64,000 nucleotides of DNA from the NCBI RefSeq assembly GCF_008802365.1, contig NZ_VZQZ01000011.1, positions 129,501 through 193,500 of the forward strand, written 5' to 3'. A model generated the notes under the pieces. That model was not told the DNA's origin, made no database searches, and saw nothing but the letters and a program-made list of their open reading frames with translations. This document shows positions 26,082 to 62,470 of this stretch, piece by piece. Position 1 is the first letter of the stretch. Every line of letters starts with the position of its first letter. Position numbers and translations under genes: made by a program. Source of the stretch: Oryzomonas japonica (GTDB lineage: Bacteria; Desulfobacterota; Desulfuromonadia; Geobacterales; Pseudopelobacteraceae).

Positions 26082-26104
26082 GCCCGGGAAGAAAGGAGAC
26101 GGGG

Positions 26105-27821: not shown

Positions 27822-27903
27822 TCGGGCTGCCGGCGCTGATGTCGAACAAAAGGAAACATGACGTGAAAATCTCAAAAAAAGTCCTAGTGCGGAGGTGTAA
27901 CTG

Positions 27904-41916: not shown

Positions 41917-43260
41917 CTACCTCCCCGCCACAACAGCGCTGAGGATATCCTCGGTCAGGCGCAGTCCTCCGCGGAAACCGGTGTAGCCCCGGTCGAGCAC
42001 GGCACGGTTGGACACCGGGAAACTGACCGACAGGTGGGGAGCGCCGATGGTCTGGGCCAGTTCCCGCTCCAAAGAGCTGCCGATGACAAAGGCCGGGCTG
42101 AAGGCGTTATGGTACTTTTGGCCACCGGCCGGCGGCCATTTCTTCTGCAGGTGTTCGATGGCGCGGCTGCCGTCGGTCTCGAAGACCAGCGTGCTCTTGT
42201 AGCGCGACTCCAGAACGTTCAATTGGCTGGTCAGCCGGTCCTTTTCCTCGTCCTCCAAGGGGTCGGTGCAGACGGTCAGTTCGGGGAGCCATCCCAGGTC
42301 GTCGGCCAGGAACTTGGTCAGGGCCGTGGCATAGTTGGCGTCGCCCACGACGATGGCGTAACGTTGCAGGTCCAGGTCGTTGAGGCAGTCGGTCAGCGGT
42401 TCGAGGAAGCGGAAGTAGGCCTGTTTCTCCCGGCTGAGGACCGTGTTGACCTTCTGCCGGGAAATCTTCAGGGCCTTGCCCACGCTCCGCAGGAAGGCTT
42501 CCGAGGCGCTGGCGCCCACCGGCAACGACAGGCTCAGAAAGGGTGTGCCGTGGATATCTTCGAACAGCTTGGCAGCCTCAACCCCGTAGACGTGGGACAC
42601 GACGATGTTCAATGAGGCCGCCCCGGCCCCGCGGATGTTCTCTATGGTGTCTTCCGAGGTAAAGAACGAGTTGACGGTCAGCCCCAGGGCCTCCAGCAGA
42701 CGGCGCACCCCTTCCAGGTTGCCGCGCCAGAACGGGTCTGCCGACGGCACGACGCCCCACAGGTTGACGCTGTTTTTGACCTTTGCCGCGCCGCGCTCCA
42801 CGAATTCCCGGAACAGGGACTGCAAGGCCAGATCGTATCCCCAGTAGGAGTTTCCCTTGAATCCCCCGGTCTCGGCGCCGATGATCGGAACATTCTGATC
42901 GCGGAAATCGGAAACCACCGTCTTGATGTCGTCGCCGATCACCTCGGTGACGCAGCCGGTCAAGATGGCGTAGATCTGGCCGTCCATGACCTTGAGGGTA
43001 CTTTCGACCTGTTCCCTGAGGCGCGCATCGCCGCCGAAGACCACCTCCCGTTCCTGGACGTTGGAACTGGGGATGGAGAGGGGCCCGCAATACCCCCCCA
43101 CCTGGAGACCCGAGCCGCCGTTCTGGGCCCAGGCGAAGTTGCCGGCGCAGCCCGAGGCGGAATGAAGGATGGGGATGCCTCCGGGAAGGGCCGCGATGGT
43201 TGCCGCAGCACCGCCAAGTGCGCACACGTAACGGGGCCGTTCGATAAAATTGTCGCTCAT
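41917..43260 (-). CDS. nitrogenase component-1-type oxidoreductase, beta (NifK/NifN/MarK-like) subunit
   Basis: 447 aa. Nitrogenase component-1 fold (ALGGAAATIAALPGGIPILHSASGCAGNF; ILTGCVTEVIGDDI). Start overlaps the upstream stop by 4 nt. Confidence 0.8.
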   Translation of the reverse strand: MSDNFIERPRYVCALGGAAATIAALPGGIPILHSASGCAGNFAWAQNGGSGLQVGGYCGPLSIPSSNVQEREVVFGGDARLREQVESTLKVMDGQIYAILTGCVTEVIGDDIKTVVSDFRDQNVPIIGAETGGFKGNSYWGYDLALQSLFREFVERGAAKVKNSVNLWGVVPSADPFWRGNLEGVRRLLEALGLTVNSFFTSEDTIENIRGAGAASLNIVVSHVYGVEAAKLFEDIHGTPFLSLSLPVGASASEAFLRSVGKALKISRQKVNTVLSREKQAYFRFLEPLTDCLNDLDLQRYAIVVGDANYATALTKFLADDLGWLPELTVCTDPLEDEEKDRLTSQLNVLESRYKSTLVFETDGSRAIEHLQKKWPPAGGQKYHNAFSPAFVIGSSLERELAQTIGAPHLSVSFPVSNRAVLDRGYTGFRGGLRLTEDILSAVVAGR

Positions 43261-44777
43261 GCCGCTGTACCTCCACGTTGATCGATATGGGAAAAGGGGT
43301 CCGCTGTGTACCAGGCATCGCTGTAGGGAAGCCGGAGGTTTTCGCCCAGCTTGCGGTTATAGATCGGATTTTTGAGCTGGCGGTACAGGCGGCGGGCGAC
43401 CTCGTAGACCCCCCGGTAACCGATGTAAGCCAGTCCGGTGTTGTAGATGACATGGGTGGGAATGCCCAGTTTGGCGGCGGTGCCGTTGCCGTTGGCATGC
43501 CCCAGAAACAGGTCCGGCTTGATCCTTTTCAGCAGGTTGGCCTCCTCGAAGGGCTGTACGTTGGCGATATCGATCACATAATCGTCCTTGCTGGAATTGG
43601 CCAGTTTCCGATATTCCCCCTCGGCGAATTCGTCGTGGTGGAAGGAGCGGATGCCAGAGACCGTGAGCCCCAGCTCTTCCAGCAGACGGGCCGTTGCCAG
43701 GGCGCGGAACTCGCCGGCGCTGATGAAGACCCGCTTCCCCTCGAACAAGGGGCGGAAGACCTCAAGCGCCTCCCGCAGTTCCCGTTCCTCATGCTCTATG
43801 ATCCGCTCCGCCTTCTCCTCTTCGCCGAAACGGGCCGCCACGTCCCGCAGCCAGAGGCCGGTGTTCTCGATGCCGATCGGCATGTGGCGGATCAGGGAGG
43901 GGACGCCGAAACGCTCCTCCAGATAGCCGAGGAAATAGTCGTCATGGGTCGGGCAGGTGCTGACCGACAGTGCCGCCTGGGTGGCCTTGACCATGTTCTC
44001 GGGATGGGCGAAGACCGGGAAGACGTTGACATCCAGACCGAGGGTGGTCAGGAGGCGTTCCAGCTCCACCTCGTCGACACGCCCCATGGAGGACACGTTC
44101 ATAAGGTTGACGGTGCGGGGCAGCCGCTCCAGCCCCTTGAAGGGCGCCAGGCCGTCCTCGGTCGGGGCCTGTTCACCTTCCCGAAGCAGGGTACGGCCGA
44201 TGCCGTGGTAGACCGCATCGTAGGCCGTGGCCCAGATCTTGGTTTTGAAACCTTCACAATGCACCGGTAGCAGTTTGGCGGTCACCTGGGGCTGGACCCG
44301 TTGCACCACGCCGTCGATATCGTCGCCGATGATGCCGGGTACACAGCCCGCCACCACGGTGATGCTGAAGGGGCGGTACCGCCGGTCGGCCTCGATGATG
44401 GCCTTTTCCAGTTTTTCTTCGCCGCCGGTGATGACATCGGTTTCATCCATGGCCGTGGAGAGCCAGACGCCGTCCTTGGGGCGTCCCCAGCGCGCATTGC
44501 TGCCGAAGCGCACATTGGTGTTCTGGGAGTGGGTGCAGCCGCCGCAGCCGATGGCGCTGTGCAGCAACACCACATTGTCCGGAAGGGTGTTGAGCATGGC
44601 CAGGGCCGGCAGGATCAGGCAGATGGACCCTTGGGTGAAGGAGCGTTCGCCGTCGTCGTGCAGGCAGGACTTCTTGCCCTTGGCGCCGGCCATTTCGCAG
44701 ATCGTGCCGCCGTGGGCGATGCAGGCCTTGAGGCGGTCTTCACGCTTTGGGGGGGATTTCAGGTCGATAGAGCTCAT
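43257..44777 (-). CDS. nitrogenase component-1-type oxidoreductase, alpha (NifD/NifE/MarD-like) subunit
   Basis: 506 aa from MSSIDLKSPP.... CIAHGGTICEMAGAK; VLLHSAIGCGGCTHSQ; VVAGCVPGIIGDDI; HCEGF. These are hallmarks of the NifD/NifE family. Confidence 0.8.
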   Translation of the reverse strand: MSSIDLKSPPKREDRLKACIAHGGTICEMAGAKGKKSCLHDDGERSFTQGSICLILPALAMLNTLPDNVVLLHSAIGCGGCTHSQNTNVRFGSNARWGRPKDGVWLSTAMDETDVITGGEEKLEKAIIEADRRYRPFSITVVAGCVPGIIGDDIDGVVQRVQPQVTAKLLPVHCEGFKTKIWATAYDAVYHGIGRTLLREGEQAPTEDGLAPFKGLERLPRTVNLMNVSSMGRVDEVELERLLTTLGLDVNVFPVFAHPENMVKATQAALSVSTCPTHDDYFLGYLEERFGVPSLIRHMPIGIENTGLWLRDVAARFGEEEKAERIIEHEERELREALEVFRPLFEGKRVFISAGEFRALATARLLEELGLTVSGIRSFHHDEFAEGEYRKLANSSKDDYVIDIANVQPFEEANLLKRIKPDLFLGHANGNGTAAKLGIPTHVIYNTGLAYIGYRGVYEVARRLYRQLKNPIYNRKLGENLRLPYSDAWYTADPFSHIDQRGGTAA

Positions 44778-44836
44778 GGTTGTTCCTTTCTCCGTTTTTC
44801 CAGATGTTTTCATCTCGTTCCCGCTCAGGTATGGCG

Positions 44837-46198
44837 TTACAGCGTTTTTCTGATCTTTGCCGGAATCCCCCGCGAGCAGGGGATATTGGTGGAGCAATGA
44901 CCACAAGAGCCGTAATTCCATTCCTTGAAATGTTCCTTGTTGCCGTGGGTCTCGCACCTTCCGGGCAACTTGCCGGCATCGGTGACGGCCCCGGTGGGGC
45001 AACGCCTGATACAGGCATCGCAGCTTCCGTCAAAGGCATACAGACAGTAGCCGTAGACCTCCGTGTAGTTCCTTTCCGTCGGGGTCAGGTGCAATGTGGT
45101 GACGACACTGCACAGCCGCCCCAGGCATCCCTTTTCGGAGATGAAATTCTGGTGCAGGCCGAAGGTGCCGAGTCCGGCGGCGAAAGCGGCATGCCGCTCC
45201 GACCAGAACGGCCGCCAGTTATCGGAATCGTAGCGGGGGTCGATATTGGGCGCGACAGCCTTGCCACCATGCTGCGCGGCAAAACGGATCAAGGCCCGGC
45301 GGACCACGTTGAGAAACTTTGAGCCGTTCCATTTGCCGGACGAAAATTCGATGGCGGAATAACGCTGCTCCCTGGAGTAGTTGGCCGATATATGCTCCGT
45401 GAACGGCAGAAAGACGCTGATGACCGAACGGGCTCCCGGCAGCCATTCATAGGGGAGCCGGTGCCCCGGGCCGACCACCTCCGGGTCCTGAAAACGCTCG
45501 AACAACGAGTCATGGGCGGAAGCGATGCCGATCAGCGGTTCAGCCCAGATCGGCGGGTTTGTCCCTTCCGGGAGCGCGTTGCGGAAATCGGTCTTCACCA
45601 GATGAGCCACAAAATGCAACAGTTCATCGTACGGGACATCGGGCCGAACCTTTCCGTCAATCACATTTTTCGGCACGGGATCGGGCTGGAAGAACAAGGG
45701 GTTGATCCCGTTCTTGATCTCCCGCCCCCTGGTCTTCTGCTCGGGGTTGGGATGGGGCGATCCCTTGACGATCAGAGGGACGTCAAAGGGTTTTCTGAAG
45801 CCGGGGGGCGACCCCTTGGTGAAGTCATAGGCGGTCCAGATATAAAGTTGTTCGTAGATATTTTCCAGCAACTCCTCGGCCAGTTCCGTCGCGCTTTGCC
45901 CATCGTTCAGGCGGGTGGCCCCCTCTTCCGGGAACAGTTCTCCCTCTATGAAGTAGTAGACCTCCTGGCGGATGGGGATGCTGGCGTTGCGCAGGGTGGC
46001 GGTCCGGTCCGAGGTTCGCACGGCAAGTACCTTGCGCCGGTCGGGCCTGTATTCATAAAGGTTCGCCTGGAGGATGTAGTCTTTCAGGCATTCGAATACC
46101 GACTGGCGATTGAGGATATTCGGGTACGGTTCGCCCCACTTGGGGATCTCGTTGACAAACAGCGAAGTGCTTTCGGATGATAAATTTTTGCCGGACAT
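44837..46198 (-). CDS. QueG/reductive-dehalogenase-like 4Fe-4S protein (paralogue of 26105..26944 with long N-terminal extension)
   Basis: WSERHAAFAAGLGTFGLHQNFISEKGCLGRLCSVVTTLHL...CDACIRRCPTGAV...CGHCSTNIPC. Start chosen at MSGKNLSS. Confidence 0.6.
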   Translation of the reverse strand: MSGKNLSSESTSLFVNEIPKWGEPYPNILNRQSVFECLKDYILQANLYEYRPDRRKVLAVRTSDRTATLRNASIPIRQEVYYFIEGELFPEEGATRLNDGQSATELAEELLENIYEQLYIWTAYDFTKGSPPGFRKPFDVPLIVKGSPHPNPEQKTRGREIKNGINPLFFQPDPVPKNVIDGKVRPDVPYDELLHFVAHLVKTDFRNALPEGTNPPIWAEPLIGIASAHDSLFERFQDPEVVGPGHRLPYEWLPGARSVISVFLPFTEHISANYSREQRYSAIEFSSGKWNGSKFLNVVRRALIRFAAQHGGKAVAPNIDPRYDSDNWRPFWSERHAAFAAGLGTFGLHQNFISEKGCLGRLCSVVTTLHLTPTERNYTEVYGYCLYAFDGSCDACIRRCPTGAVTDAGKLPGRCETHGNKEHFKEWNYGSCGHCSTNIPCSRGIPAKIRKTL

Positions 46199-46208
46199 GA
46201 CGGTCTCC

Positions 46209-46973
46209 TTACCGTTTCCCTGTCCAGTACAGGGCTCTGCGCTGGATCGCATCGAAAATTTCCATCATCAGGATGATGAAGATGGACATGAAGATCATGC
46301 CTGCCAGGACACGGGGATAGTCGGAGAAGTCCGAATAATACTGAATGAAATACCCCATGCCGGATTTGGCCCCGAACATCTCCGCAACCGTCAGCAGGAT
46401 GAAGCTGAAGACCAGCGCCATCCCGGCCCCGGCAAAGATATGGGGGAGCGCCCCCGGAAAGACCACCAGTCGGAACAGGCGGTTGCCATGGAGCCCCAAC
46501 GCCCTGGCGTTATCCAGATAACGTTCCTCCAGCAGCACTACCCCATGGATGGTCCCCATCAGGATGGGCCAGAAGGCGCCCACAAAAACGATGAATGCCG
46601 ACGAGAGCCAGAACGTGGGCAGTACGGAGATGGCGTAGGGGATCAGCATCGTGGGTGGGATCGGGCTGATGCCCCTGAAGAGGGGCATCAGCGTGGTCCG
46701 CACGGCCTGGTGATAGCCGACGAAAAGCCCTAGGACGACACCCAGGACCAAAGCCAGGAAATAACTGGGCAGCAGCAGGCCGAAGGAGCTCAACAGGCCT
46801 TCGAGGAGCTTGGGGAGCGCCTCGGCAAATGCCGGGAGAATCCTGGAAAGCCCGGGGAACAGGACCGGTTCCAGCCATCCCGTGATATCGGTAGCCAGTT
46901 CGAAGATGGCTACGAAGATCAGGATGATGATGACTGTCCCGGTGTATTTTTTAACGTTTGTGGTCAGTAACAC
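46209..46973 (-). CDS. ABC transporter permease, NitT/TauT (sulfonate/nitrate/taurine) family
   Basis: SsuC/TauC-type permease with EAA-like loop (LEERYLDNARALGLHGNRLFRLVVFPGALP). Confidence 0.8.
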   Translation of the reverse strand: MLLTTNVKKYTGTVIIILIFVAIFELATDITGWLEPVLFPGLSRILPAFAEALPKLLEGLLSSFGLLLPSYFLALVLGVVLGLFVGYHQAVRTTLMPLFRGISPIPPTMLIPYAISVLPTFWLSSAFIVFVGAFWPILMGTIHGVVLLEERYLDNARALGLHGNRLFRLVVFPGALPHIFAGAGMALVFSFILLTVAEMFGAKSGMGYFIQYYSDFSDYPRVLAGMIFMSIFIILMMEIFDAIQRRALYWTGKR

Positions 46974-46985
46974 GGGCTATTCCCT

Positions 46986-48035
46986 CTAACTGTTCTGCTT
47001 TTCAAAGTGTTTTTTCGCATTCAGGTAATAACGGTCCTTGGGATTGCGGCGGATCAATTCACCGAGCGCGTCGCGGTACAACTGGGTGTTGATGTAGCGA
47101 TTGATATCCAGTTCCGACGTGACATAGTTGATCTCCTTCAGCTCATGCCACATCTGCTTGACCCGGTGCTTGTCGGGATCGACGCTGACGTGCTGGTGCG
47201 GTTCACTCACGAAGGTGGCAGCCAGGTTGTCGTCGATATTCATATAGCGCTTGGTTATGTTCTGGGCCAATTTGGGGTTGGTGTCCTTGATCTTTTCGGC
47301 TTGCAGCAGAGCCCGCAGGAAAGCCCGGTAGACGTCCGGGGCGCCGTTGACCGCCTTGCCCTTGGCGACGATGCGGCAGCAGGGATGCTGCGGGAAAAAA
47401 TCGTTGCTCCACCCGACGATCGCGAGGCCGGATTCCTTGGCTTGCAGGAAGATGGACGACGCACCGATACCCACATCGACCTTGCCCGATTTGACCGCTT
47501 CCAGCACAGCAGGCGGATTTTTCAGTTCTATGATCTTCAGATCTTTGTTCGGGTCGAGTCCGGCGCGTTTGAGCGCCCCGCGCCAGACCACGTCCGCCGT
47601 ATAGAGCCGGGGAACGGCAACCGTTTTCCCCTTGAAGTCCCTGATGGTTTTAAATTGCCCGGCCCGCGCGGGAAGGGCTATTACCGGATGCCCCCCTGCC
47701 AGGGCCCCGCCGATGATAGTAAAGTCGGATCCCTTGGAGATAAAGGTCAGCGGCGCCGCCGTGCCGAAAGAGATCCCGATGTCGATCTTGCCGCTGTTGA
47801 GCGCATTCAGGCCGTCGCCGGTGCTGCTGAACTGCACCAATTCGACCTCGACGCCCTCCTTGGTAAAGAGCTTCTGATCCTGGGCGACAAAGGCCAGGAT
47901 GCTGGCGCCGCCGGGGGTATAGCCAACCTTGAGTTTTCCCTGCTGTTTGGCCTGTGCCTGGGTCATGGTCAGCAGCAGCGCGACCAGCACCAGGGCAATA
48001 ATGTTGCCTGCCAGTACCACTTGTTTCAACCTCAT
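46986..48035 (-). CDS. ABC transporter substrate-binding protein (NMT1/SsuA-like)
   Basis: Signal peptide then an NMT1-type periplasmic binding fold. Confidence 0.75.
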   Translation of the reverse strand: MRLKQVVLAGNIIALVLVALLLTMTQAQAKQQGKLKVGYTPGGASILAFVAQDQKLFTKEGVEVELVQFSSTGDGLNALNSGKIDIGISFGTAAPLTFISKGSDFTIIGGALAGGHPVIALPARAGQFKTIRDFKGKTVAVPRLYTADVVWRGALKRAGLDPNKDLKIIELKNPPAVLEAVKSGKVDVGIGASSIFLQAKESGLAIVGWSNDFFPQHPCCRIVAKGKAVNGAPDVYRAFLRALLQAEKIKDTNPKLAQNITKRYMNIDDNLAATFVSEPHQHVSVDPDKHRVKQMWHELKEINYVTSELDINRYINTQLYRDALGELIRRNPKDRYYLNAKKHFEKQNS

Positions 48036-48072
48036 CTGATTCTCCTTTAAGTAATATGAAAATGGACTAAAG

Positions 48073-48975
48073 TTAGTTCCGCCACCTCAGTAAATGGCGT
48101 TCAAGCCGTTCCGTGCCGAAGGTAATGACCAGCACCACCAGACTTATGAAGATGATGCCCACGACCACCCGCGGGTAGTCGGCAAAGTCGGCGAAGTTCT
48201 TCACATACCAGCCGATGCCCGAGTTGGCCCCGATCAGTTCGGCGGCGGTCAACAGCACGAAGGCAAAGACCAGTGCAAGCGTAGCCCCGGTGCAGATGGA
48301 GGGCATGGCACCCGGCAGGATGACCCGCAGCAGCAAGGTATGCTCCTTCAAGCCCAGTACCCGGGCGGAGTCCAACAGCCCCTTGGGGATGTTGAAGACA
48401 CCGTTGACCGTGTTGATGAAAATGGGCCAAAAAGCGCCGATGAAGATCACGAAGATCGAGGCAGCACGGAAGCTCGGCAACAGGGCAATGGCGTAGGGAA
48501 TATAGACAATGGGCGGAATGGGCCCCAGCACCTTGGTGAACGGGTTGACGGCATGGAACAGGCGGACCCGCCAGCCGACCAGAAGCCCCAGCGGCAGGGC
48601 GGTTGCCACAGCCAGCAGATACCCGCTCACCAACAGGATCAGGGAGTTCACCAGCCCCTTGAGCATGTCCGGCAATTCGGCCACGAACAGCGTCAATACC
48701 GCTTCCGGCTGGGGGAAGAGCATCTTGTCCAGCACAATGAAGCGGGAGGTGGCCACGTACCATGCCAGAAGAATGGCAAGGATGATGGCGCTCACATCGC
48801 TGGATCCCCGACGCGATGCTTCATTTTTGACGGTAGCCAGCATGATCAGATCAATGGCCTTGACCACAATGGCCACGGTCAGGAGGTGCCAGGGGACCGG
48901 CCCCGCCGACGGCCAGAGAATGGCTGCCAGCAGGGTGATAAAGAGCAGGTTTGAAGTAGTTGTTACCTGGTTCAT
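48073..48975 (-). CDS. ABC transporter permease, NitT/TauT family (second)
   Basis: SsuC-type six-TM permease (LDSARVLGLKEHTLLLRVILPGAMP). Confidence 0.8.
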   Translation of the reverse strand: MNQVTTTSNLLFITLLAAILWPSAGPVPWHLLTVAIVVKAIDLIMLATVKNEASRRGSSDVSAIILAILLAWYVATSRFIVLDKMLFPQPEAVLTLFVAELPDMLKGLVNSLILLVSGYLLAVATALPLGLLVGWRVRLFHAVNPFTKVLGPIPPIVYIPYAIALLPSFRAASIFVIFIGAFWPIFINTVNGVFNIPKGLLDSARVLGLKEHTLLLRVILPGAMPSICTGATLALVFAFVLLTAAELIGANSGIGWYVKNFADFADYPRVVVGIIFISLVVLVITFGTERLERHLLRWRN

Positions 48976-49034
48976 GGGTTATATCCTGATAGGTATGAAT
49001 GTGCGGTTCCGAATCGCAGCCCTGGAATGCCTTC

Positions 49035-50063
49035 TCAATTGTTCTTTTTGTAGAAGCTCAGCATCTGCTGATAGACCTTGTCCTTAGGATTTTTCTTGAT
49101 GACCGAATCAAGCGCCTGCTTGTAGATGTCGGTGTTGATATGCTTATCGATCGGGTAGTCCTGAGGGATGTAGCCCGCTTCACGGATATGCTGCCAGAAA
49201 TCCAATATTCCCTTGCGGAGCGGGTCGGGGTTCGATTCGGACACCTTTTTCACGTACGTTTCATTGCGGACGATGCCTTCGTCGATCTTCAGGGACTTGG
49301 TATAGATCCTGACCGTCTCTTCGGGGTTGGTTTTATAGAACCTGTAGGCACGGATCAGCGCGGCCAGGAAACGGCGATAGGTATCCTTGTCGGCATTCAG
49401 TTTGGCCGTGGGGGCAACGATGCGGCAGCAGGTGTATTTGGGGTAGTATTCTTCAAGGTAGTGGGCAACCTTCAAGCCGCTGTTCTTCTCGGCCAGTGAA
49501 AAGTGAGGCGGCCACAGGAGTCCGGCATCCACAGAACCTTTCTTGATCGCCTCCACCACCGCCGTGGCCGAGCCCAGCTCAACGAACGTGATATCCTTTT
49601 TCCAGTCGATGCCGGCTTTTTTCAGGGCGCCCTTGAAGATGACATCACCGGTGGAAAGCTTCACTAGGCCGATCTTTTTCCCTTTGTAGACCTTGAGGTT
49701 TTTACCCGCAAGTTCGGCCAGACGATCCGGACGGGTGACAATGGCCTGTCCGCCGATCATCATGCCGCCGAAGAAGGTGAAGTCGGACCCTTTGGAAATG
49801 AACAACAGCGGCGCGGTGGTGCCGAAGGTGCCCACGTCCAGTTTTTCAGCCTTGAGCGCAGCTATGCCCTCGGAGGCGCTGCCGAACTGGAACAACTCCA
49901 CGTCAACCCCTTCTTCCTTGAAGTAGCCCTTTTCCTTGGCCACGAAGTACAACCCGTGGGCCGGCTCAGGGACATACCCCACCCGAAGCTTGGGCAGGTT
50001 CGCGGCAACAGCGACGGACATCATGAACATTGACAGCAGGAAAGCGGCGATGATCCTCTTCAT
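49035..50063 (-). CDS. ABC transporter substrate-binding protein (NMT1/SsuA-like, second)
   Basis: Signal peptide MKRIIAAFLLSMFMMSVAVAA. NMT1 fold. Confidence 0.75.
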   Translation of the reverse strand: MKRIIAAFLLSMFMMSVAVAANLPKLRVGYVPEPAHGLYFVAKEKGYFKEEGVDVELFQFGSASEGIAALKAEKLDVGTFGTTAPLLFISKGSDFTFFGGMMIGGQAIVTRPDRLAELAGKNLKVYKGKKIGLVKLSTGDVIFKGALKKAGIDWKKDITFVELGSATAVVEAIKKGSVDAGLLWPPHFSLAEKNSGLKVAHYLEEYYPKYTCCRIVAPTAKLNADKDTYRRFLAALIRAYRFYKTNPEETVRIYTKSLKIDEGIVRNETYVKKVSESNPDPLRKGILDFWQHIREAGYIPQDYPIDKHINTDIYKQALDSVIKKNPKDKVYQQMLSFYKKNN

Positions 50064-50881
50064 TGGGTACTACCTCCTTGTAACGTAAATAGTCTGCCGG
50101 AATTGGCCGGGCAGCAATTGGGCGTGCAGACCGCCTTGGAGAACAGCTCTTGCAGGACAGGGTCCATGGGACCAATCAACAGGCGATCCAGCGCATCACA
50201 GTAAATCTCTTCATAGACATGGTTTGCCAGGAAATCACCCGGCATAGCGGCATCCTGGAGGCCGAGCCCTTGCCAGATGCGGAGCATGCGCCAATAGTCA
50301 GGATTGGGGTCGAAATGGATATTCGGGACGGTTGCACCTTGCGATAGCTTCTGCAGCGTCGCCTGCCTGACTACCGGTGATTGTTGCTGCAACGTGCGGT
50401 GGGCCCGGATCAGGGCGGCGGTCAAGCCGATGATGGAGCCCTTTTCGGCCACCGGCCGGTTTGCCGGTACGAGCACGACAATCCCCCTGCGCTCCTGCTC
50501 ACCCTGGTGGTTTTCGTCCAGGCTTGCCAGCGGCCCCGTGTCGGTGGGGGTCCCGCCTCCGGCAATGATGCGAAATCCCTTTCCTTTGGCTATCTGCCCC
50601 AGCGCCTCTCCGACCATGAAGGCCCCGGCGTCGATGGAGCCCGCTTCAAGGGCGGCCAAGCCGCTGGCGGTATCCTGAAATTTGACCAGCTTGACCTGCA
50701 ATCCTTCTTCGCGAAAATGCCCGTGTGTTGCGGCAACGCGGCACAGGGCGCTGCCGGGGTGGTCCAGATAGCCCAAGCGGAAAAATTTTCCCGCCGCATG
50801 GCACGGCATGACGCCGGAGACCAGCAACAGTACCGCCATGAGAGACGGTGCCGCTATCCGGTGGACATGCCCGAAATTCAT
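50060..50881 (-). CDS. ABC transporter substrate-binding protein (NMT1-like, third, shorter)
   Basis: Signal peptide then KFFRLGYLDHPGSALCRVAA... Confidence 0.65.
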   Translation of the reverse strand: MNFGHVHRIAAPSLMAVLLLVSGVMPCHAAGKFFRLGYLDHPGSALCRVAATHGHFREEGLQVKLVKFQDTASGLAALEAGSIDAGAFMVGEALGQIAKGKGFRIIAGGGTPTDTGPLASLDENHQGEQERRGIVVLVPANRPVAEKGSIIGLTAALIRAHRTLQQQSPVVRQATLQKLSQGATVPNIHFDPNPDYWRMLRIWQGLGLQDAAMPGDFLANHVYEEIYCDALDRLLIGPMDPVLQELFSKAVCTPNCCPANSGRLFTLQGGSTQ

Positions 50882-51693
50882 ATCCCATCCCCCTGGGATG
50901 CGACTATCTGACCGGCATCCAGCTCGGAGAGGATGTTTTCGTACAGCACCGTGACCAGCCGGTCCCGCAGCGTCTGGAAGGTCTGGTTGTGGTACAGTTC
51001 CTGGCGGATGCGGGGACGGGGTAGGTCCACCTCGAATACTCCCTTTATGGTACCGGGATTGACACCCAGCACAACGATGCGGTTGGCCAGCAGGATGGCC
51101 TCCTCCACGTCGTGGGTAACGAAGAAGACGGTCTTGCGCTCGTCCTGCCGCTGCTGCCAGAGCTGGAGAAGCAGGTCCTGGAGCCGAGCGCGGGTGATGG
51201 CGTCCAGCGCGCCGAAGGGCTCATCCATCAGGAGCACCGGCGCGTTGATGGCAAAGGCCCGCGCAATGGCCGCCCGCTGGCGCATCCCGCCGGAAAGCAG
51301 GCCGGGGAGCTTGTCATAGGCATCCGCCAGGCCGACCATTTCCAGGTAGCCGGCCGCCGTCTCCCGGTACTCATCTTTCTTCTTTCCGGGGAAGGCCTGT
51401 TCCAGGGCCAGGACGATATTCTGCCCGGCGGTCATCCAGGGAAACAGGGAGTAATCCTGAAAGACCACGCCCCGGTCCAGGCCGGGACCGCTGATCTGCT
51501 TCCCGTCCAGGGTTATACCGCCTGACGACGGAAAGGAAAGGCCCGCCAGAAGCCGCAAGAGCGTGCTCTTGCCACAGCCGGACGGCCCCAGCAGGCAGAC
51601 GAAATCTCCCGGTTCGGCGGTAAAGGTGATGTCCTGTAGGACCCGTTGGTCACCGTAGGAATAATTGACGTTGGACAATGTTACTTCATACAT
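50878..51693 (-). CDS. ABC transporter ATP-binding protein (SsuB/TauB-like)
   Basis: Walker A LLGPSGCGKST, signature LSGGMRQR and Walker B LLMDEPF. Start at MYEVTLSNV. Confidence 0.85.
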   Translation of the reverse strand: MYEVTLSNVNYSYGDQRVLQDITFTAEPGDFVCLLGPSGCGKSTLLRLLAGLSFPSSGGITLDGKQISGPGLDRGVVFQDYSLFPWMTAGQNIVLALEQAFPGKKKDEYRETAAGYLEMVGLADAYDKLPGLLSGGMRQRAAIARAFAINAPVLLMDEPFGALDAITRARLQDLLLQLWQQRQDERKTVFFVTHDVEEAILLANRIVVLGVNPGTIKGVFEVDLPRPRIRQELYHNQTFQTLRDRLVTVLYENILSELDAGQIVASQGDGI

Positions 51694-51703
51694 GGAAATA
51701 TCC

Positions 51704-52360
51704 TCACAGATCCCGTTTATCGGCCAGCCGCTTGTAGTACGAGTGACTGGTGTACAGCGCGCCGACCGGGTTATGGGCCAGCACGCGGTCCTTGACCACA
51801 AGGTAGGTTACCGGCGCTTCGGAATATTTTATGAACATGGAATCGTGGCCGACACACAGGCCGACGATTATGTTCAAATCGGTTTTTTCCCTGGCCAGGA
51901 TGCGGGCCTGAAGCACCGGGTTGCAGGCCGATTCGTGCTGCCCTTTGTTGATCTTGAACTCTTCAGGAATACCCAATTCGGTCTTGTCCACCGAACCGAC
52001 CTTGCAGGCCACGGTATAGCTCTGGATTCCCTGGGCATCGAGAAACTTGATGAAGTTTTTGGTCTCGTTGATCAGGCCGACGCAGGTGGCGATGCCGACC
52101 TTCTTTGCCTTGATGCGGCGCGCAAAGGCGGCCACTTCCTCCACGCGGGTCAACCTGCCGTAGTAGGTCCCTTCGACCTCTGCGGCGGCGTTGGAAATTT
52201 TCGAAACCAACGGATCTTCGCGATAAATGCGGTTGACCTCCTCAATTTCCTGTTTATCCTCGGCCTCGGTCAGGCAGAAGGCGGGAAAAACGGAGGTCCG
52301 CGAGTTGCAGTTGATGGTGGCGCAGTCGCCACAGGTCAGTACGTTCTTTTTCTTGGCCAT
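51704..52360 (-). CDS. Cys-rich metal-binding protein, DUF1847-like
   Basis: LTCGDCATINCNSRTSVFPAFCLTEAE...GLCVGHDSMF is a DUF1847-type Cys pattern. 218 aa. Confidence 0.5.
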   Translation of the reverse strand: MAKKKNVLTCGDCATINCNSRTSVFPAFCLTEAEDKQEIEEVNRIYREDPLVSKISNAAAEVEGTYYGRLTRVEEVAAFARRIKAKKVGIATCVGLINETKNFIKFLDAQGIQSYTVACKVGSVDKTELGIPEEFKINKGQHESACNPVLQARILAREKTDLNIIVGLCVGHDSMFIKYSEAPVTYLVVKDRVLAHNPVGALYTSHSYYKRLADKRDL

Positions 52361-52388
52361 GATTCTCTCCGAAGTAGGGTATTTGCGA

Positions 52389-52522
52389 CTGTTGAAAAGC
52401 TCAGGTTGTTCAAAAATAGTCAGATCGTCGCACCCGGAGAAGGCCCTGAGGAGGCGTAGCAGCGCTACGCCGCACGAAAGGGCTTTCGAGGAGGGCGGCG
52501 AGATGGCTGTTTTTCAACAACC
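52389..52522 (+). repeat. MITE-like repeat, copy 4 (inserted inside the nif-like operon between the nifH-like and DUF1847 genes)
   Basis: Aligns end-to-end with copy 3. Confidence 0.8.
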
Positions 52523-52524
52523 TC

Positions 52525-53400
52525 TTAGATGCTTGCCCCGCTGCTGCGGACCTCCCCGGCCTCAACGGCCAGGATCTGATCGGACCAGTCGGCGGCCCAC
52601 TTGCGCAGCGCCTCCGCGCTCAGCGGCTCCGGCACCCTGGATTCCGTGTGGTTGGCGATCCGGTCGGCAAGCTTCTTATAGACCTGGGCCTGCTCGGAAT
52701 CGGGGAAGGCCTCGATGGTGGTCTTACCCTGCAACTCGGCCTGGGTGACGGTGATCGAACGAGGTACATACTCCATCACCTGGGTGTTGGTGCGTGCCAC
52801 GAAGTCGTCGATGATATGTTTGGCATAGGGTGCATTGACGGAGTTGGCGATCACGCCGCCCAAAAGTGCCCCACCGTTGTTGGAGTACTTCTTGATGCCG
52901 GTGAACAGATTGTTTGCGGCGTAAATGGCCATAAAGTCCGACGACGACACCGTGAAAACGTGCTCGGCGATCCCTTCCCGGATCGGTACGGCAAAGCCGC
53001 CGCAGACCACGTCCCCCAGGACATCGTAGATTACGTAATCCAGGTCCAGTTCCTCGAAAACCCGTTGCTGTTTGAGCAGCTCAATGGCGGTGATAATGCC
53101 GCGACCAGCGCAGCCGACCCCCGGCGCGGGGCCGCCGGCCTCCACGCAGTGGACGCCGTTGAAACCGGAGAAGACCACCTCGCTGGCCTTGGCGCTCTTC
53201 TTTTCCCGCAGGGTGTCAAGGATAGTGGGTATATAGTTGCCCCCCCGCAGGGTGACGGTGGAGTCGTTCTTGGGGTCGCAGCCGACCTGCATGACCTTGT
53301 AGCCTGCTACCGACAGGGCGGCGGTGATATTGGAGGTGGTGGTGGATTTACCGATGCCTCCCTTGCCATAGATCGCTATCTGTTTCGGTTTTTTTGCCAT
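52525..53400 (-). CDS. nitrogenase Fe-protein-like ATPase (NifH/BchL/CfbC/MarH family)
   Basis: P-loop [15 protein letters not shown], switch [10 protein letters not shown] and both 4Fe-4S ligand cysteines (GVGCAGRG; DVVCGGFA) are conserved. 291 aa. Confidence 0.85.
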
Positions 53401-53412
53401 CTGTTCCTCCGA

Positions 53413-53757
53413 TTATTTGATGTAGGTAAAACGCTTCGACGCCCGCAATGTTTCCAGGGCCTCGTCAATGGGGCCACCCATGGTGAAGGCCAGAATCCGG
53501 TGGCCGATGAGGGCGTCGATGGCGCCGGGGCCGACCTGGGCGGCCACGACCCCTCGGCAGTCGGAAATGAGTTGTGCCGCCTGGTCCAGAACATCGTCGT
53601 CGTGCTGCTGCCCCCCGCAGACCGGGGTATTTTTCCGCAGTTCCAGGAATTCATGCCCTTCGTCGTGCAGCCGGTAGATGCGGAAGGCCTGCGCCCTGCC
53701 GAAATGCTCGTTTATTGTCGTCCCGTCGCTGCTTGCCACGGCGATCTTTACATCCAT
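53413..53757 (-). CDS. dinitrogenase FeMo-cofactor-binding-like domain protein (NifX/NafY/NifB-C-terminal family)
   Basis: MDVKIAVASSDGTTINEHFGRAQAFRIY...VVAAQVGPGAIDALIGHRILAF matches the NifX/NafY-type domain. RBS GAGGAG upstream. Confidence 0.7.
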   Translation of the reverse strand: MDVKIAVASSDGTTINEHFGRAQAFRIYRLHDEGHEFLELRKNTPVCGGQQHDDDVLDQAAQLISDCRGVVAAQVGPGAIDALIGHRILAFTMGGPIDEALETLRASKRFTYIK

Positions 53758-53780: not shown

Positions 53781-53834
53781 AAAATAAAAAAAGAGGTCAA
53801 GGTATGGGCGAAATTCTCGCCCAGCCTTGACCTC
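53781..53834 (-). terminator. strong intrinsic terminator/attenuator 24 nt upstream of the nifX-like start codon
   Basis: On the minus strand, the nested GC hairpin GAGGTCAAGG-CTG-GGCGAGAATTTCGCCC-ATAC-CCTTGACCTC is followed by TTTTTTTATTTT. Next come CTACCCCAACGAGGAGCTGGCTC and the ATG. Confidence 0.55.
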
Positions 53835-54129
53835 CAGTGTATCTGGTCGGCCGTTGCCGGTATGATTGTGTGAAGCTGAAACAGTTGGACAGAGTTCTTG
53901 ACTTAAGTGGTGTTGCTTAAGTGATGGTCAAGTTAACATTTACAGGTGGCTCCGTCAACAAAAAAATAATATTATGTCTATCTATTTTATATTTTATTTA
54001 AATATTCGTAGAAAAGTGGCAAAAACGCACCCGCTTTCAGACTCATTTTGTTGAGTAATCAAGGGGATAATCATTGAATGCGGAGAACGTGGCGCAAGCG
54101 CGGTTCAGCGGAGGGCGTACAGGGCCGGG

Positions 54130-54975
54130 CTACGTATTCAGAAAATGGGACAAAACCTGCTCCTTGAGACCCTGAACGGCAACAGTCTGATGCCGTCGCG
54201 GCCGGGGAACGTCAATGGCAACCCGACCACGAATCGCTCCAGGCGCAGGGGAAAAGACGTAGACCTCGTCGGACAGGCAGACCGCTTCGCCCACATCGTG
54301 AGTCGCCAGAACAATAGTTATGCCACTGGTTTCCCAGAGACGCACCAGATCGTCCTGGAGCTTTTCCCTGGTCAGGGCGTCAACGGCTGCAAAGGGCTCA
54401 TCCATTAGGATGATCCCGGGTTCCGCGGAAAAGGCCCGCGCCAGGGCCAGCCGCTGACGCATGCCGCCCGACATGTGGGCTGGGTAGCTGTTGGCGGCCT
54501 CCTCCAGTCCGACCATAGCCAGATAGTGGCGGGCCAGTTTTTCACGCTCACCCCGGGGGACGCCGCGCAGCCCCAAGACGAATTGTACGTTCTGGCGGGC
54601 GGTCATCCAGGGGAAGACGGCGTAGTCCTGAAAGATCATGGCGATGTCGTGCCGGGGTTTGTTGCGGAAGAGGCTGTTGGCGATGGGCGAGAGAAAGCGG
54701 TGTTTTTTGCGATACGCTTTAATCCCGGACGGTGTGTTGGGTAGCGGCTCCAAGAGCCGAGTCCCGTCGATGCGCACCTCGCCGTGGGACGGCGCCTGGA
54801 GACCGGCCAGAATTTCCAGGAAGGTGGACTTGCCGCAGCCGGTCGGACCGACCAGGGACACAAAGGCGCCGTCCCCGATGGTGAGCGACACCGACTGCAG
54901 CACCGTCTTGTCCGTCGTACGCCCCTGCCCGCTTGAAATGGGAAAGGTTTTGGTGATAGCGACCGCCTCGATCAT
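54130..54975 (-). CDS. ABC transporter ATP-binding protein (NitT/TauT family, second system)
   Basis: Walker A LVGPTGCGKST, signature MSGGMRQR and Walker B ILMDEPF. Confidence 0.85.
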   Translation of the reverse strand: MIEAVAITKTFPISSGQGRTTDKTVLQSVSLTIGDGAFVSLVGPTGCGKSTFLEILAGLQAPSHGEVRIDGTRLLEPLPNTPSGIKAYRKKHRFLSPIANSLFRNKPRHDIAMIFQDYAVFPWMTARQNVQFVLGLRGVPRGEREKLARHYLAMVGLEEAANSYPAHMSGGMRQRLALARAFSAEPGIILMDEPFAAVDALTREKLQDDLVRLWETSGITIVLATHDVGEAVCLSDEVYVFSPAPGAIRGRVAIDVPRPRRHQTVAVQGLKEQVLSHFLNT

Positions 54976-54979
54976 GGCG

Positions 54980-55822
54980 TCACCGTTCGATGCGCCATAC
55001 GGCCAGCTTCAACTCGGCGTATTTCATGATTTCGGTCATAAGCCATCCCGCCGCGCCCAGGATCAGCATGCAGACCACCATCCGGTCGATCTGAAAATAT
55101 TCCTTGCCCCGCAACAGCAAATAGCCTATTCCGCTGCCGCCGCTCTGCATTTCGGCCACCACCAACATGACCAGCCCCAGGGCGATGCCGATCCTGATCC
55201 CCATGATAACCGAACCAAGGGCGTGCCAGATATGGACGTGGGTGATGATGGTAAATTCACTGGCGCCAAAGACGCGGGCCGAGGCGATGTACCGGGGGTT
55301 GGTTTCACTGATTCCCTGGTAAGTACTAAACAACACCGGATAGAAAACCCCCAGGAAGATGAGGAATACCTGCATCGGCAGGCCGATACCCAGCACGATT
55401 ATGGTGACCGGCACCCAGGCCGGCGGCGGGATCGGCGCCAGGATCTGGAACAGAGGCAGGCAGTGCTTGCGGATGAACCGGTTCCACCCCATCACCACCC
55501 CGAGGGGAAAAGCGGTCGCCACCGCCAGGGCGAAGCCGAGCAAGAATCGGAGCGCGCTCTCGCCCAGGTGTGCCAGCAGGTGTTGTTTCTGAAACATCTG
55601 GCTGCAGGCGGAAACAAGTGTTGAGGGTGGCGGGACCAGGGATGCGGGCACCAGGCCGAGCAGGGGCAGGACCTCCCAGAAGATCAGCAGCGGAACCAAA
55701 ACGGTCAGGGATTCCCGGGACAACAGGCTGCCGAAGGATGACCGCCAGAAGAGCCGCACCTCAACCAACAGCCGCCGCCAGCGACCTTCAGCCTCACCCG
55801 CAATCAGCGGAGTACCAGGCAT
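54980..55822 (-). CDS. ABC transporter permease (NitT/TauT family, second system)
   Basis: SsuC-type permease (ISETNPRYIASARVFGASEFTIITHVHIWHAL). Confidence 0.8.
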   Translation of the reverse strand: MPGTPLIAGEAEGRWRRLLVEVRLFWRSSFGSLLSRESLTVLVPLLIFWEVLPLLGLVPASLVPPPSTLVSACSQMFQKQHLLAHLGESALRFLLGFALAVATAFPLGVVMGWNRFIRKHCLPLFQILAPIPPPAWVPVTIIVLGIGLPMQVFLIFLGVFYPVLFSTYQGISETNPRYIASARVFGASEFTIITHVHIWHALGSVIMGIRIGIALGLVMLVVAEMQSGGSGIGYLLLRGKEYFQIDRMVVCMLILGAAGWLMTEIMKYAELKLAVWRIER

Positions 55823-56718
55823 CGCCCATCTCCCAACTCCTTGCGCAGGTCATCGCCCACCGTCACGAAGTTTGCCGCCGGCAGCCGCTCCAGGTCTTCC
55901 CGGGAATAACCGAGCCTTTTGCTTACCGCCTTGCGTAGTTCGGCAGGGGGCAGTGCGCTGGCCGCCAAAAGGGACTGCACCACCGGCTTGAGCGCCTCCA
56001 CGGCCCCTCCCCTGACCACCAGAAAATAATCGCTCTGGGCCAGGGCCGCCGGGCAACATTCGTCGCCGGCCTTGATGTCCCAATTCTGGTAGAGCACCTT
56101 GTGCCCCAGATGCTCGGCGAGTACCGCGTAGGAGCCCTTTACCAGCACGGCATCGACCTTGCCCGCCTCCAGAGCGGGCACCATCTCGTCGAAAGACATG
56201 AATCGGGTATGTATGCGATCCACATCGACGCCCAGTCGCTTGGCGTCCCTCCTGAACTGGTGGAGCAGCTTGCAGTCCGGCTCCTGGGCCGCAATGGTCC
56301 TGCCGGCAAGATCCCCCAGGCGGATGTTCAGGTCCTTGCGGATCACCAGCGTCGCGCCGTAGGGAAACTGTACGGCCCCGGCCACCTTGAGGGTCTCGCC
56401 TCCGGGTGCCTTGAGCAGCTTGACCGCCTTGTTGGTCTCCACGAATCCGGCGTCGATCTTGCCCGAGATTAGGGAATAGCCGATGTCGCCACCACTACCG
56501 ATGGGGACCGCTTGCCAGGTGTGCGGCCGGCCTGTCTGGCGTTCATCGGCTGCGTAGATCGGTCCCAGCAGGGGGCTGTCCCCGTAGCCGATACGGAGCA
56601 CCGGTGACGACGAGGCGGAACCCTGGGGAGGATTCTGCTTTTGGCATGCCGCACACAGTAGTATCGTTGTGAAGAGCAGCGCAAACCATGGGGCACGTGA
56701 TTGTAGTTTCCGGTTCAT
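55804..56718 (-). CDS. ABC transporter substrate-binding lipoprotein (NMT1/SsuA-like)
   Basis: Lipobox LLCAAC. NMT1-like fold. Confidence 0.7.
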   Translation of the reverse strand: MNRKLQSRAPWFALLFTTILLCAACQKQNPPQGSASSSPVLRIGYGDSPLLGPIYAADERQTGRPHTWQAVPIGSGGDIGYSLISGKIDAGFVETNKAVKLLKAPGGETLKVAGAVQFPYGATLVIRKDLNIRLGDLAGRTIAAQEPDCKLLHQFRRDAKRLGVDVDRIHTRFMSFDEMVPALEAGKVDAVLVKGSYAVLAEHLGHKVLYQNWDIKAGDECCPAALAQSDYFLVVRGGAVEALKPVVQSLLAASALPPAELRKAVSKRLGYSREDLERLPAANFVTVGDDLRKELGDGRCLVLR

Positions 56719-56755
56719 CAGTTAGTAATCCTCCGCGGCTCCGTAGTGAATATGG

Positions 56756-57706: not shown

Positions 57707-57734
57707 ATCGGTTTCCCCTTTGTTCCTGTTACCG

Positions 57735-59114
<1,380 letters not shown>

Positions 59115-60089: not shown

Positions 60090-60224
60090 GGCACGTCTCC
60101 TTTTGAATGGAAAAAGGCCGGGAAATGCCCATGATTATGGGACATTGAACCCGGCCTCCGGTTTTTCCGGTCAGCACAGAATCGTTTGTCGCAGGCCGTG
60201 GGGGCCTGTTCTGTAGTTACGGGC

Positions 60225-61105: not shown

Positions 61106-61181
61106 GGGCACATAGCTTAGCTGGTAGAGCAGCCGACTCTTAATCGGCAGGTCGTCGGTTCGATCCCGACTGTGCCCACCA
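61106..61181 (+). tRNA. tRNA-Lys (anticodon CTT)
   Basis: Acceptor GGGCACA/TGTGCCC, D-arm GCTT-AGCTGGTA-GAGC, anticodon stem GCCGA/TCGGC with loop CTCTTAA, T-arm GTCGG-TTCGATC-CCGAC, discriminator A plus CCA. Confidence 0.85.
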
Positions 61182-62105: not shown

Positions 62106-62287
62106 GGGTCGCCTCGTTTCCCATCCGGCAATCCGTCGCGGGACTCCGAACGTTTGAAAAGCAAGAGGCCGGGGCTGCCCATGGAAGGGACATGAACCCC
62201 GGCCTCCGGTTTATCCGGTCAGCGCGGAAAAGATGATTGATCGTTGTTCAAAGTTGCGAACGGAACCCCGTCGCCGCCGTTTGAGGA

Positions 62288-62470
62288 TTAAATCCCGCCG
62301 CCGTCCACATATCCGGTTTTGTTGAGCCGGATCTTCTCGCTCTTGTCTACCTGGATCACCCGGCCGTCCTGCACCACCAGGGTCACCGTGCCGAAACGGA
62401 TCGAGCTCAGCGCCTCACGCACGACCTGCTCCAGATCCCGGCTCCATGGTTCAGGGGGCGGGGCGGCCAT
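62288..62470 (-). CDS. YezD/DUF2292 family small protein
   Basis: FGTVTLVVQDGRVIQVDKSEKIRL matches the YezD signature. Start overlaps the cysK stop. Confidence 0.65.
   Translation of the reverse strand: MAAPPPEPWSRDLEQVVREALSSIRFGTVTLVVQDGRVIQVDKSEKIRLNKTGYVDGGGI

Follow-up and report, generated by a model that had tools for sequence, protein, structure and literature searches.

This study concerns a 64-kb stretch of the genome of Oryzomonas japonica, a soil bacterium of the Geobacteraceae, which was analyzed in its whole length (the window), and within it a compact operon of twelve minus-strand genes (41917-53757). The operon encodes the subunits NflD and NflK and the Fe protein NflH of a nitrogenase-like (NFL) system together with a NifX-like protein, an ATP-binding cassette (ABC) importer, a DUF1847 protein, and a predicted corrinoid-type Fe-S protein (Table 1). 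Sequence comparison supports an assignment to the group IV NFL proteins and not to the nitrogenases, and we consider it probable, with appreciable room for doubt, that the encoded enzyme is an ATP-driven reductase acting on an imported organosulfur compound and feeding CysK and MetY. An earlier sequence-only reading of the same DNA had listed the twelve genes in this order, and open reading frames (ORFs), Pfam, and NCBIfam located every one of them at its place and in its family. For comparison, a scan of species-representative genomes provided 80 related D-K loci with 59-95% identity (L numbers below), of which 53 long loci were used for counting neighboring genes.

Table 1. Features of the window, with positions counted from its first nucleotide.
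Feature	Position	Strand	Evidence or remark
NifX/NafY-like putative cofactor carrier, 114 aa	53413-53757	-	Pfam Nitro_FeMo-Co 73.7 bits
NflH, NFL Fe protein of MarH type, 291 aa	52525-53400	-	Fer4_NifH 335 bits
DUF1847 protein, 218 aa	51704-52360	-	209 bits
ABC importer ATPase	50878-51690	-	ABC_tran 108.6 bits
Short binding-protein-like exported protein, 273 aa	50060-50881	-	NMT1_2 26.5 bits, cutoff 24.7 (weak)
SBP1, NMT1/SsuA-family binding protein, full-length, 342 aa	49035-50063	-	NMT1 86 bits
ABC permease 1, 300 aa	48073-48975	-	BPD_transp_1 74.5 bits
SBP2, NMT1/SsuA-family binding protein, full-length, 349 aa	46986-48035	-	NMT1_2 71.6 bits
ABC permease 2, 254 aa	46209-46973	-	BPD_transp_1 79.7 bits
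RdhA/QueG-superfamily protein, cytoplasmic, 453 aa	44837-46198	-	Predicted fold; no Pfam match
NflD, predicted alpha-like catalytic subunit, 506 aa	43257-44777	-	Oxidored_nitro 272 bits
NflK, beta-like subunit, 447 aa	41917-43260	-	Oxidored_nitro 233 bits
Leader RNA, copy 1	53781-53896	-	Ends ~25 nt before the NifX-like start; covariance model 85.6 bits
Leader RNA, copy 2	60102-60220	-	Directly 5' of rhodanese; 27.2 bits, E = 1.6e-6 in window
Leader RNA, copy 3	62153-62269	-	Directly 5' of second NifH-like gene; 29.1 bits, E = 4.2e-7
Repeat element, ~118 bp	52403-52523		Between nflH and DUF1847 gene; terminal inverted repeats GGTTGTTGAAAAA...TTTTTGAACAACC
Repeat element, other copies	17463-17600, 19359-19480, 22260-22381		
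Upstream co-regulated unit (rhodanese-MetY-importer)	54130-60089	-	
Second NMT1-type ABC importer	54130-57778	-	Pfam/NCBIfam
MetY/homocysteine synthase	57735-59024	-	729 bits
Rhodanese	59115-60089	-	Pfam/NCBIfam
tRNA gene	61106-61178	+	Between methyltransferase gene and second nifH-like gene
Second, divergent NifH-like Fe protein, 290 aa	61233-62105	-	Fer4_NifH 214 bits
cysK	62470-63423	-	TIGR01139 469 bits, above cutoff
Rrf2-family regulator	63486-63947	-	rrf2_super 110.6 bits

Gene content of the operon

The junctions between operon genes consist of 4-nt overlaps or gaps of 10-59 nt, with a 164-nt gap between nflH and the DUF1847 gene as the sole exception. At the far end of the operon, the ATGA overlap of the NifD-like and NifK-like frames can be read directly in the sequence, as previously claimed. 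The wide gap hosts a repeat that folds as a long hairpin (-55.9 kcal/mol) and occurs in four copies in the window, three near-identical and one diverged, with none expected by chance. It is absent from the 95%-identical relative L003, in which the gap from H to the DUF1847 gene measures 21 nt. The multiple copies, the terminal inverted repeats, and the absence in L003 justify its designation as an inserted small repeat element, thereby bearing out, as far as a repeat is concerned, the proposed insertion of a miniature inverted-repeat transposable element. The sequence-only reading had also described a single minus-strand gene train; this holds for the twelve-gene operon, whereas the apparent 22-kb train is broken by a plus-strand tRNA gene. 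Scans for consensus promoters and terminators across the operon performed no better than on shuffled sequence.

The Fe protein NflH carries the P-loop GKGGIGKST and both cluster cysteines, the cysteine stretch including GDVVCGGF, in agreement with the intact motifs described before. Its closest solved structure is MarH (9fmg_D) of the methylthio-alkane reductase (Mar) from Rhodospirillum rubrum, with 76% identity and 487 bits versus ~279 bits to NifH. At the same time, NflH exceeds the cutoff of the NCBIfam nifH equivalog TIGR01287 (403.8 versus 394.35). As it passes this curated threshold, a sulfur-linked NflH gene would be annotated, and probably amplified, as nifH, and soil diazotroph surveys relying on nifH can therefore miscount it.

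The preceding 114-aa protein had been called NifX/NafY-like, a label backed by its Nitro_FeMo-Co match. Against the NifB model it aligns with the C-terminal portion only, and it has no radical-SAM domain; judged by this domain content, it represents a NifX-type carrier and not a counterpart of MarB. Mar itself had been portrayed as a NifX/B-like plus H, D, K set, which has to be corrected: MarB is homologous to the radical-SAM protein NifB and lacks a NifX domain, and in Rhodopseudomonas palustris, Mar does not function without a NifX homologue (bioRxiv 10.64898/2026.08.20.746119).

A further gene for cofactor synthesis was searched by phmmer in all frames (NifB-like) and by Pfam analysis of the other large ORFs, and neither a NifB-like, nor a NifE/N-like, nor a second D/K gene was detected in the window. 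The earlier statement that nifB is missing within 20 kb on either side stands for the downstream side; upstream, it is checkable over the 10.2 kb that lie between the operon and the window end. Among the long related loci, 18 of 53 carry a NifB-like radical-SAM gene near D-K, those of sister Geobacteraceae included, and in R. rubrum NifB can take the place of MarB (PMC13474568, section 8.3). On these grounds a NifB-type supply from elsewhere in the diazotroph genome appears plausible. In line with this designation, O. japonica Red96 is an isolate within the Geobacteraceae that harbors nif genes and grows on N2 (PMC11127431).

Between the genes for the Fe protein and D-K lies the importer. The closest NCBIfam models of its ATPase are of the nitrate, taurine, and sulfonate types, all of them below cutoff; SBP1 scores 122 bits against SsuA_fam (cutoff 163.5), and the relatives of SBP1 and SBP2 in the PDB (SsuA, TauA, and NrtA) are distant, with E values from 1e-6 to 1e-10. 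Two of the three NMT1-type binding proteins claimed before are full-length, while the third one is short and matches weakly; its homologues are found at the same position in many Geobacteraceae loci. Both proposed SsuC-type permeases were recovered as BPD_transp_1 proteins. Elsewhere in the window (15280-17376, plus strand), an NMT1-type periplasmic binding domain is fused to PAS and GGDEF (diguanylate cyclase) domains of a sensor protein.

The DUF1847 protein is characterized by eight invariant cysteines, two invariant histidines, and a flavodoxin/Rossmann-like fold, and its homologues, 61-96% conserved across many anaerobes, are located beside an activase, D, or H. Because it thus adjoins one or the other ATP-dependent reductase (the Fe protein or the corrinoid activase), one may tentatively speculate from fold and position that it serves as an Fe-S electron donor.

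The 453-aa protein encoded upstream of NflD shares 100% identity with the NCBI entry "epoxyqueuosine reductase [Oryzomonas japonica]". Its AlphaFold model (pLDDT 91) yielded 43 Foldseek matches with E <= 0.001, all 43 being PceA, NpRdhA, a membrane-bound reductive dehalogenase (RDH) complex, or QueG at probability 1.0. Eight conserved cysteines (385/393/396/400 and 415/432/435/441) would suit two 4Fe-4S clusters, and no export signal is present in the protein. QueG itself was rejected as an assignment, the QueG equivalog model giving 37.7 at a cutoff of 200. Hence, of the former QueG/RdhA-like label the superfamily part is retained: the modeled fold supports, at superfamily level, a member of the RdhA/QueG corrinoid Fe-S proteins with a predicted corrinoid-enzyme fold. 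This gene was found only in the Desulfuromonadales (eight out of 19 long loci), always after SBP2 and permease 2, and in Geomonas the SBP2-permease 2-RdhA-like trio follows corrinoid genes instead of preceding D. The fixed order of the trio and its movement relative to D link the RdhA-like protein with the second uptake set instead of D/K, so that the suggestion of a QueG-like partner of D/K gives way to a traveling three-gene module. Based on fold and position, the protein might tentatively be a corrinoid enzyme pre-processing a second substrate. A 279-aa paralogue (26105-26944, plus strand; phmmer E = 6e-40, weak Fer4_16 match) is encoded within a flavin reductase/FMN reductase/nitroreductase cluster (24931-28557).

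Metal ligands, active site, and clade of NflDK

All six P-cluster cysteines are kept in the catalytic subunits, namely Cys53, Cys78, and Cys145 of NflD and Cys13, Cys38, and Cys103 of NflK, equivalent to residues 62, 88, and 154 of NifD and 70, 95, and 153 of NifK. Furthermore, NflD Cys275 and His427 are the equivalents of MarD Cys270 and His429 and are predicted as ligands of an [Fe8S9C] cluster; in Mar, structure and spectroscopy demonstrated that these residues hold the P-cluster and the [Fe8S9C] cluster (PMC12552129). All eight residues are invariant over 201 D and 78 K family sequences, as is NflK Cys58 within the clade. His427 aligns with MarD His429 after the shift of a one-residue gap, with identical spacing from the histidine to GIP. 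The ligand alignment check recommended by the sequence-only reading, which had named NifD Cys275 and His442, was thereby carried out: the P-cluster set and the cofactor cysteine, the latter in a Mar-type ...C-x-T... motif, are retained, and the histidine is located in the Mar-type Loop I and not at the position of NifD His442. Scores against the nitrogenase models are far below their cutoffs (NflD 152 bits against TIGR01282 nifD, cutoff 653; NflK 86 bits against nifK, cutoff 427), and nifEN is missing from the window. The claim of a nitrogenase-like system rather than a nitrogenase is consequently well founded, supporting its placement in group IV on the level of sequence.

The best PDB matches of both subunits are MarD (229 bits, 34% identity) and MarK (272 bits, 37% identity). 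Nevertheless, a search across 1.8 billion cluster representatives revealed several lineages closer to the D/K protein of the window than Mar. In neighbor-joining trees, D/K grouped with its 60-95% relatives at a bootstrap of 90% and with wider representatives at 75%, and the Mar group formed a separate clade (90%). The ligand columns of the NflD clade read CCCCH, while an Isr-like D-C-P-N/D signature marks a different large clade in the tree.

Comparison of the active sites emphasized this separation. NflD keeps the equivalents of MarD Trp195, Phe374, and His375; the positions of MarD His194, Ser196, and Phe199 are taken by invariant Ile, Ala, and Tyr, and adjacent to the ligand histidine an invariant Gly426 stands for MarD Arg428, a residue proposed as a hallmark of Mar (PMC12552129). 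The substrate channel is predicted to be more polar, displaying Pro, Ala, Gln, and Asn where MarD has Met70, Cys73, Tyr98, and Ile101, and a clade-specific insertion of 18-25 residues is situated between the third P-cluster cysteine and the cofactor cysteine. Due to this clade-specific signature and the insertion, we interpret NflDK as a complex-cluster NFL enzyme, the substrate of which would differ from that of Mar. In terms of classification, the alignments lead to the verdict that NflDK is not a Mar orthologue and belongs to an uncharacterised group IV clade. The distinct subgroup surmised in the sequence-only reading thus emerged as a clade of its own, while its Mar-like character was lost with the low identity, the separate branch, and the invariant replacements of His194 and Arg428.

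This clade as such cannot be considered new, as homologues with 66-95% identity are already spread across Geobacteraceae, Firmicutes, and spirochaetes and the corrinoid link was noted earlier (PMC10418091). Hosts of the 80 D-K loci are Geobacteraceae/Desulfuromonadales, many Firmicutes (Sporomusa, Pelosinus, Desulfosporosinus, heliobacteria, Pelotomaculum, and Syntrophomonas), termite-gut spirochaetes, and Syntrophobacterales. Almost always, D-K is accompanied by URO-D-family methyltransferases, a corrinoid protein, and the reductive activase RACo, an assembly designated as "type I mlp cluster". Among the long loci, URO-D methyltransferases (45/53) and NMT1 importers (38/53) prevail over cysK (29/53) and metY (10/53), and in Firmicutes the URO-D gene is usually located directly upstream of D. 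Genes for Mlp, the corrinoid protein, and RACo were not found in the Oryzomonas window. Cluster look-ups for ten 50%-identity representatives of the D/K clade returned almost no names, and an exact look-up of NflD retrieved no entry.

Leader RNA and sulfur genes upstream of the operon

Three copies of a conserved leader RNA precede the NFL operon, the second nifH-like gene, and the rhodanese-metY-importer unit, respectively. Its architecture comprises a G-R-CUGA segment, a 4-bp P1 hairpin with an A-rich loop, an AGG, a long terminator hairpin, and a U tract. Copy 1 folds with -53.4 kcal/mol (z = -4.3), and copy 2 exhibits compensated P1 and terminator stems. The covariance model retrieved 123 copies in related loci (L001, L003, L008-L027, and, from Firmicutes, L079 and L081 among others). 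In Desulfuromonadales as well as Firmicutes, the leader is placed directly 5' of NFL and sulfur-acquisition genes. Evaluated on 121 distinct sequences, 95.9% of the cells were found to be paired versus 81.4% in shuffles; pairing in P1, although outside the structure of the model, reaches 99.6%, three of the four P1 pairs show compensatory changes, and seven of nine outer pairs of the terminator covary. No Rfam family matched the leader at E <= 1.

An exact-pattern scan of metagenome contigs detected the leader at 39 places, 35 of these being complete. A downstream gene could be called in 29 cases, and 28 of these genes are homologues of genes in the sulfur island or of neighboring sulfur genes (DsrE-like, 8; rhodanese, 5; ABC ATPase, 4; binding protein, 2; SAT, 1; metY, 1; NFL X/H, 6; NFL D, 1). 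The shared leader and the genes behind it argue that the NFL operon belongs to one regulon with sulfur-assimilation genes. We propose the leader as a candidate for an undescribed attenuator or riboswitch-like element, which may be sulfur-responsive. If it proves to be ligand-sensing, it would define a novel class of regulation in the acquisition of sulfur by anaerobes.

Three more specific explanations of the leader were rejected. Leader-peptide attenuation is opposed by the window copy, in which the apparent in-frame UGA of most copies reads CGA. Regarding a GACC-GGUC antiterminator pairing, variants carry GGCC without compensation, while the 4-bp P1 covaries cleanly. An ANTAR-type two-hairpin site was discarded as well, the P1 loop having no conserved G. 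Upstream of the leader (53900-54020, minus strand), we noticed an AT-rich, promoter-like region with a duplicated CACTTAAG motif; it is shared by L003 and L008 (Oryzomonas relatives) and may be bound by a regulator.

The genes upstream support the location of the operon within a sulfur-assimilation island. The metY, rhodanese, and cysK genes of the sequence-only reading were all identified, as was an Rrf2-family regulator, whose presumed CymR-like nature found no equal backing (74.7 bits against the CymR model, under cutoff). Weak matches of the methyltransferase and rhodanese nearby to the TehB, MduS, and ExtH models are far under their cutoffs. The second NifH-like gene, the second ABC importer, and the plus-strand tRNA gene had been overlooked before. 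The second NifH-like protein scores 235 bits against TIGR01287 (cutoff 394) and keeps the P-loop and both cysteines, with both Switch II (DISGDSTCSS) and the cluster loop (GSGQCGSS) altered; its homologues adjoin D-K in loci L014 and L026.

Proposed function and relation to known systems

Combining these data, the pathway we consider probable would start with the uptake of a non-volatile organosulfur compound by the NMT1/SsuA-family importer, the two binding-protein/permease sets suggesting two related substrates. NflDK, for which a P-cluster and an [Fe8S9C]-type cluster are predicted, would receive low-potential electrons from the Fe protein at the expense of ATP and use them for the reductive cleavage of a C-S bond. 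The sulfide or thiol set free would then be fixed by CysK and MetY encoded upstream. As to the cofactor, the complex cluster may originate from a NifB-type enzyme outside the window, in a diazotroph equipped with nif genes, and be delivered by the NifX-like carrier; the terminator-containing leader RNA, shared with other sulfur units, may gate expression of the system.

Several points weigh against this pathway. No member of the D/K clade is characterised, so that C-S cleavage is deduced by analogy from Mar, Isr, and gene context. The window contains no NifB-like gene, and the usual corrinoid methyltransferase genes are absent from it as well, so the Oryzomonas pathway may differ from that of its relatives or be incomplete. 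The sequence distance of the binding proteins from SsuA, TauA, and NrtA makes an organosulfur substrate of the importer a presumption, and the roles of the DUF1847 and RdhA-like proteins are tentative assignments from fold and position. Finally, group IV-A relatives in Endomicrobium and Heliophilum were reported to support N2-dependent growth (PMC13474568, section 4). In general, gene context was described as of little help for group IV clades, for which tractable hosts are lacking, in a 2026 review (PMC13474568).

A bolder version, which we hold to be rather unlikely in its full extent, would make the D/K clade a new enzyme class, which would draw on a P-cluster and an L-type cluster and set free sulfide instead of methanethiol from an imported non-volatile thioether or sulfonium compound. 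It would be partnered with corrinoid enzymes (Mlp in most lineages, RdhA-like proteins in Geobacteraceae), a DUF1847 donor, and a sulfur-sensing riboswitch-like leader.

Unlikely, too, is a true Mar isozyme, converting volatile thioethers (dimethyl sulfide (DMS), ethyl methyl sulfide, methylthioethanol) into methanethiol and, via MetY, into methionine. The high identity of NflH to MarH, the conserved P-cluster and Cys/His ligands, the retained Trp195, Phe374, and His375, and the upstream metY would fit this function, as would the split H...DK arrangement and the essential NifX homologue of R. palustris Mar. Nonetheless, the subunit identities fall well below the 52-65% found among confirmed and suspected Mar paralogues (bioRxiv 10.64898/2026.08.20.746119), the clades are separated with 90% bootstrap on both sides, and the residues around the cofactor and along the channel are exchanged as listed above. 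Moreover, volatile thioethers require no ABC importer, and cysK is the commoner neighbor in comparison to metY.

An Isr-type sulfonate reductase, releasing sulfite from an imported aliphatic sulfonate, has a low probability in our estimation. The aliphatic sulfonate and taurine families nearest to the importer would agree with it, as does the use of the NFL enzyme Isr in assimilating sulfonates (PMC13474568, section 9), and 7 kb downstream in L003 lies a gene resembling sulfite reductase that has this leader RNA as well. However, of the three NifD P-cluster cysteines IsrDK retains a single one, the equivalent of Cys88, and the Cys270/His429 pair is missing (PMC13474568, section 9.4), while the NflD clade has every one of these residues; the D-C-P-N/D signature falls into the other large clade, and there is no sulfite reductase gene in the window.

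Very unlikely is an Nfa-type (group IV-A) function in fixation of nitrogen or reduction of another small nitrogen compound. The mlp-linked homologues were labelled IV-A (PMC10418091), Nfa was implicated in the N2-dependent growth mentioned above, NflH passes the nifH cutoff, and the cysteine numbers 53 and 78 of D and 13 of K coincide with those published for NfaD/NfaK. Opposed to this are the sulfur and transport context devoid of nitrogen-regulatory genes and a canonical nitrogenase that already works in this organism (PMC11127431). Compared by published residue numbers only (PMC13474568, section 4.3), the spacing 78-146-257 of Endomicrobium proavitum NfaD (Cys146-Cys257 = 111) suits Mar-like clades, versus 130-140 in the NflD clade. 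The Heliophilum homologue within the clade (L050) has no nifH, nifB, or nifX neighbors, unlike NflDK1 proposed as the nitrogenase of this organism (PMC9147875).

Methyl-selenide or selenium acquisition ranks last and is hardly to be expected: most type I mlp clusters are tied to selenium (PMC10418091) and TehB, MduS, and ExtH are weakly matched, but these matches lie far under cutoff, Kountz & Balskus assigned the NFL-linked clusters to a "non-selenium" clade, and cysK, metY, SAT, and DsrE-like genes dominate the neighborhoods and the genes behind the leader.

With the presumed organosulfur reductase, an uncharacterised NFL clade is represented in a nitrogen-fixing Geobacteraceae strain available in culture, and the locus offers handles for a substrate search: two dedicated binding proteins, a fixed active-site signature unlike that of Mar, and a leader RNA marking the regulon across phyla. 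What is new is the Geobacteraceae form of the operon with importer, DUF1847, and RdhA-like module, the active-site signature of the clade, and the leader RNA; the split layout and the sulfur context were already known.

Among known systems, Mar of R. rubrum (MarBHDK, group IV-C; PDB 9fmg and 9d9u) resembles the Oryzomonas system in its two-component ATP-dependent architecture, closely related Fe protein, metal ligands, retained active-site residues, and MetY context. It differs by its MarB, for which the window has no counterpart, by the D/K distance, insertion, and active-site changes described above, and by the importer, DUF1847, and RdhA-like genes located inside the Oryzomonas operon. R. 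palustris Mar2 (marHB2 ... marKD2) and NflDK3 share the separation of H from D-K by other sulfur genes as well as a stand-alone NifX homologue, so that the split H...DK order, described by the sequence-only reading as non-canonical, has a precedent in Mar2; they are up-regulated under sulfur limitation and adjoin sulfonate-type transporters, and Mar2 acts on methylthioethanol and ethanedithiol. Unlike NflDK, they are members of the Mar clade (52-65% identity to MarDK) and possess their own MarB (bioRxiv 10.64898/2026.08.20.746119). Isr of Rhodobacter capsulatus (IsrBHDK, group IV-F) is likewise an NFL enzyme that gains sulfur from an imported non-volatile organosulfur compound, yet it is without the Cys/His pair of the cofactor and the majority of the P-cluster cysteines and is predicted to hold a [4Fe-4S] cluster, in contrast to the full ligand set of the NflDK clade. 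The NFL genes that accompany "non-selenium" type I mlp clusters, labelled group IV-A in the 2023 preprint of Kountz & Balskus (PMC10418091), belong to the same D/K clade and have DUF1847 as a recurrent accessory. In this form, Firmicute homologues with 60-71% identity to the O. japonica D protein (OjD) adjoin a corrinoid protein, two or three URO-D (Mlp) proteins, RACo, NifB-like, NifX, and NifH, whereas in the Geobacteraceae form H and D-K are set apart by an NMT1 importer of several genes, joined in eight of the 19 long Desulfuromonadales loci by the SBP2-permease 2-RdhA-like module.

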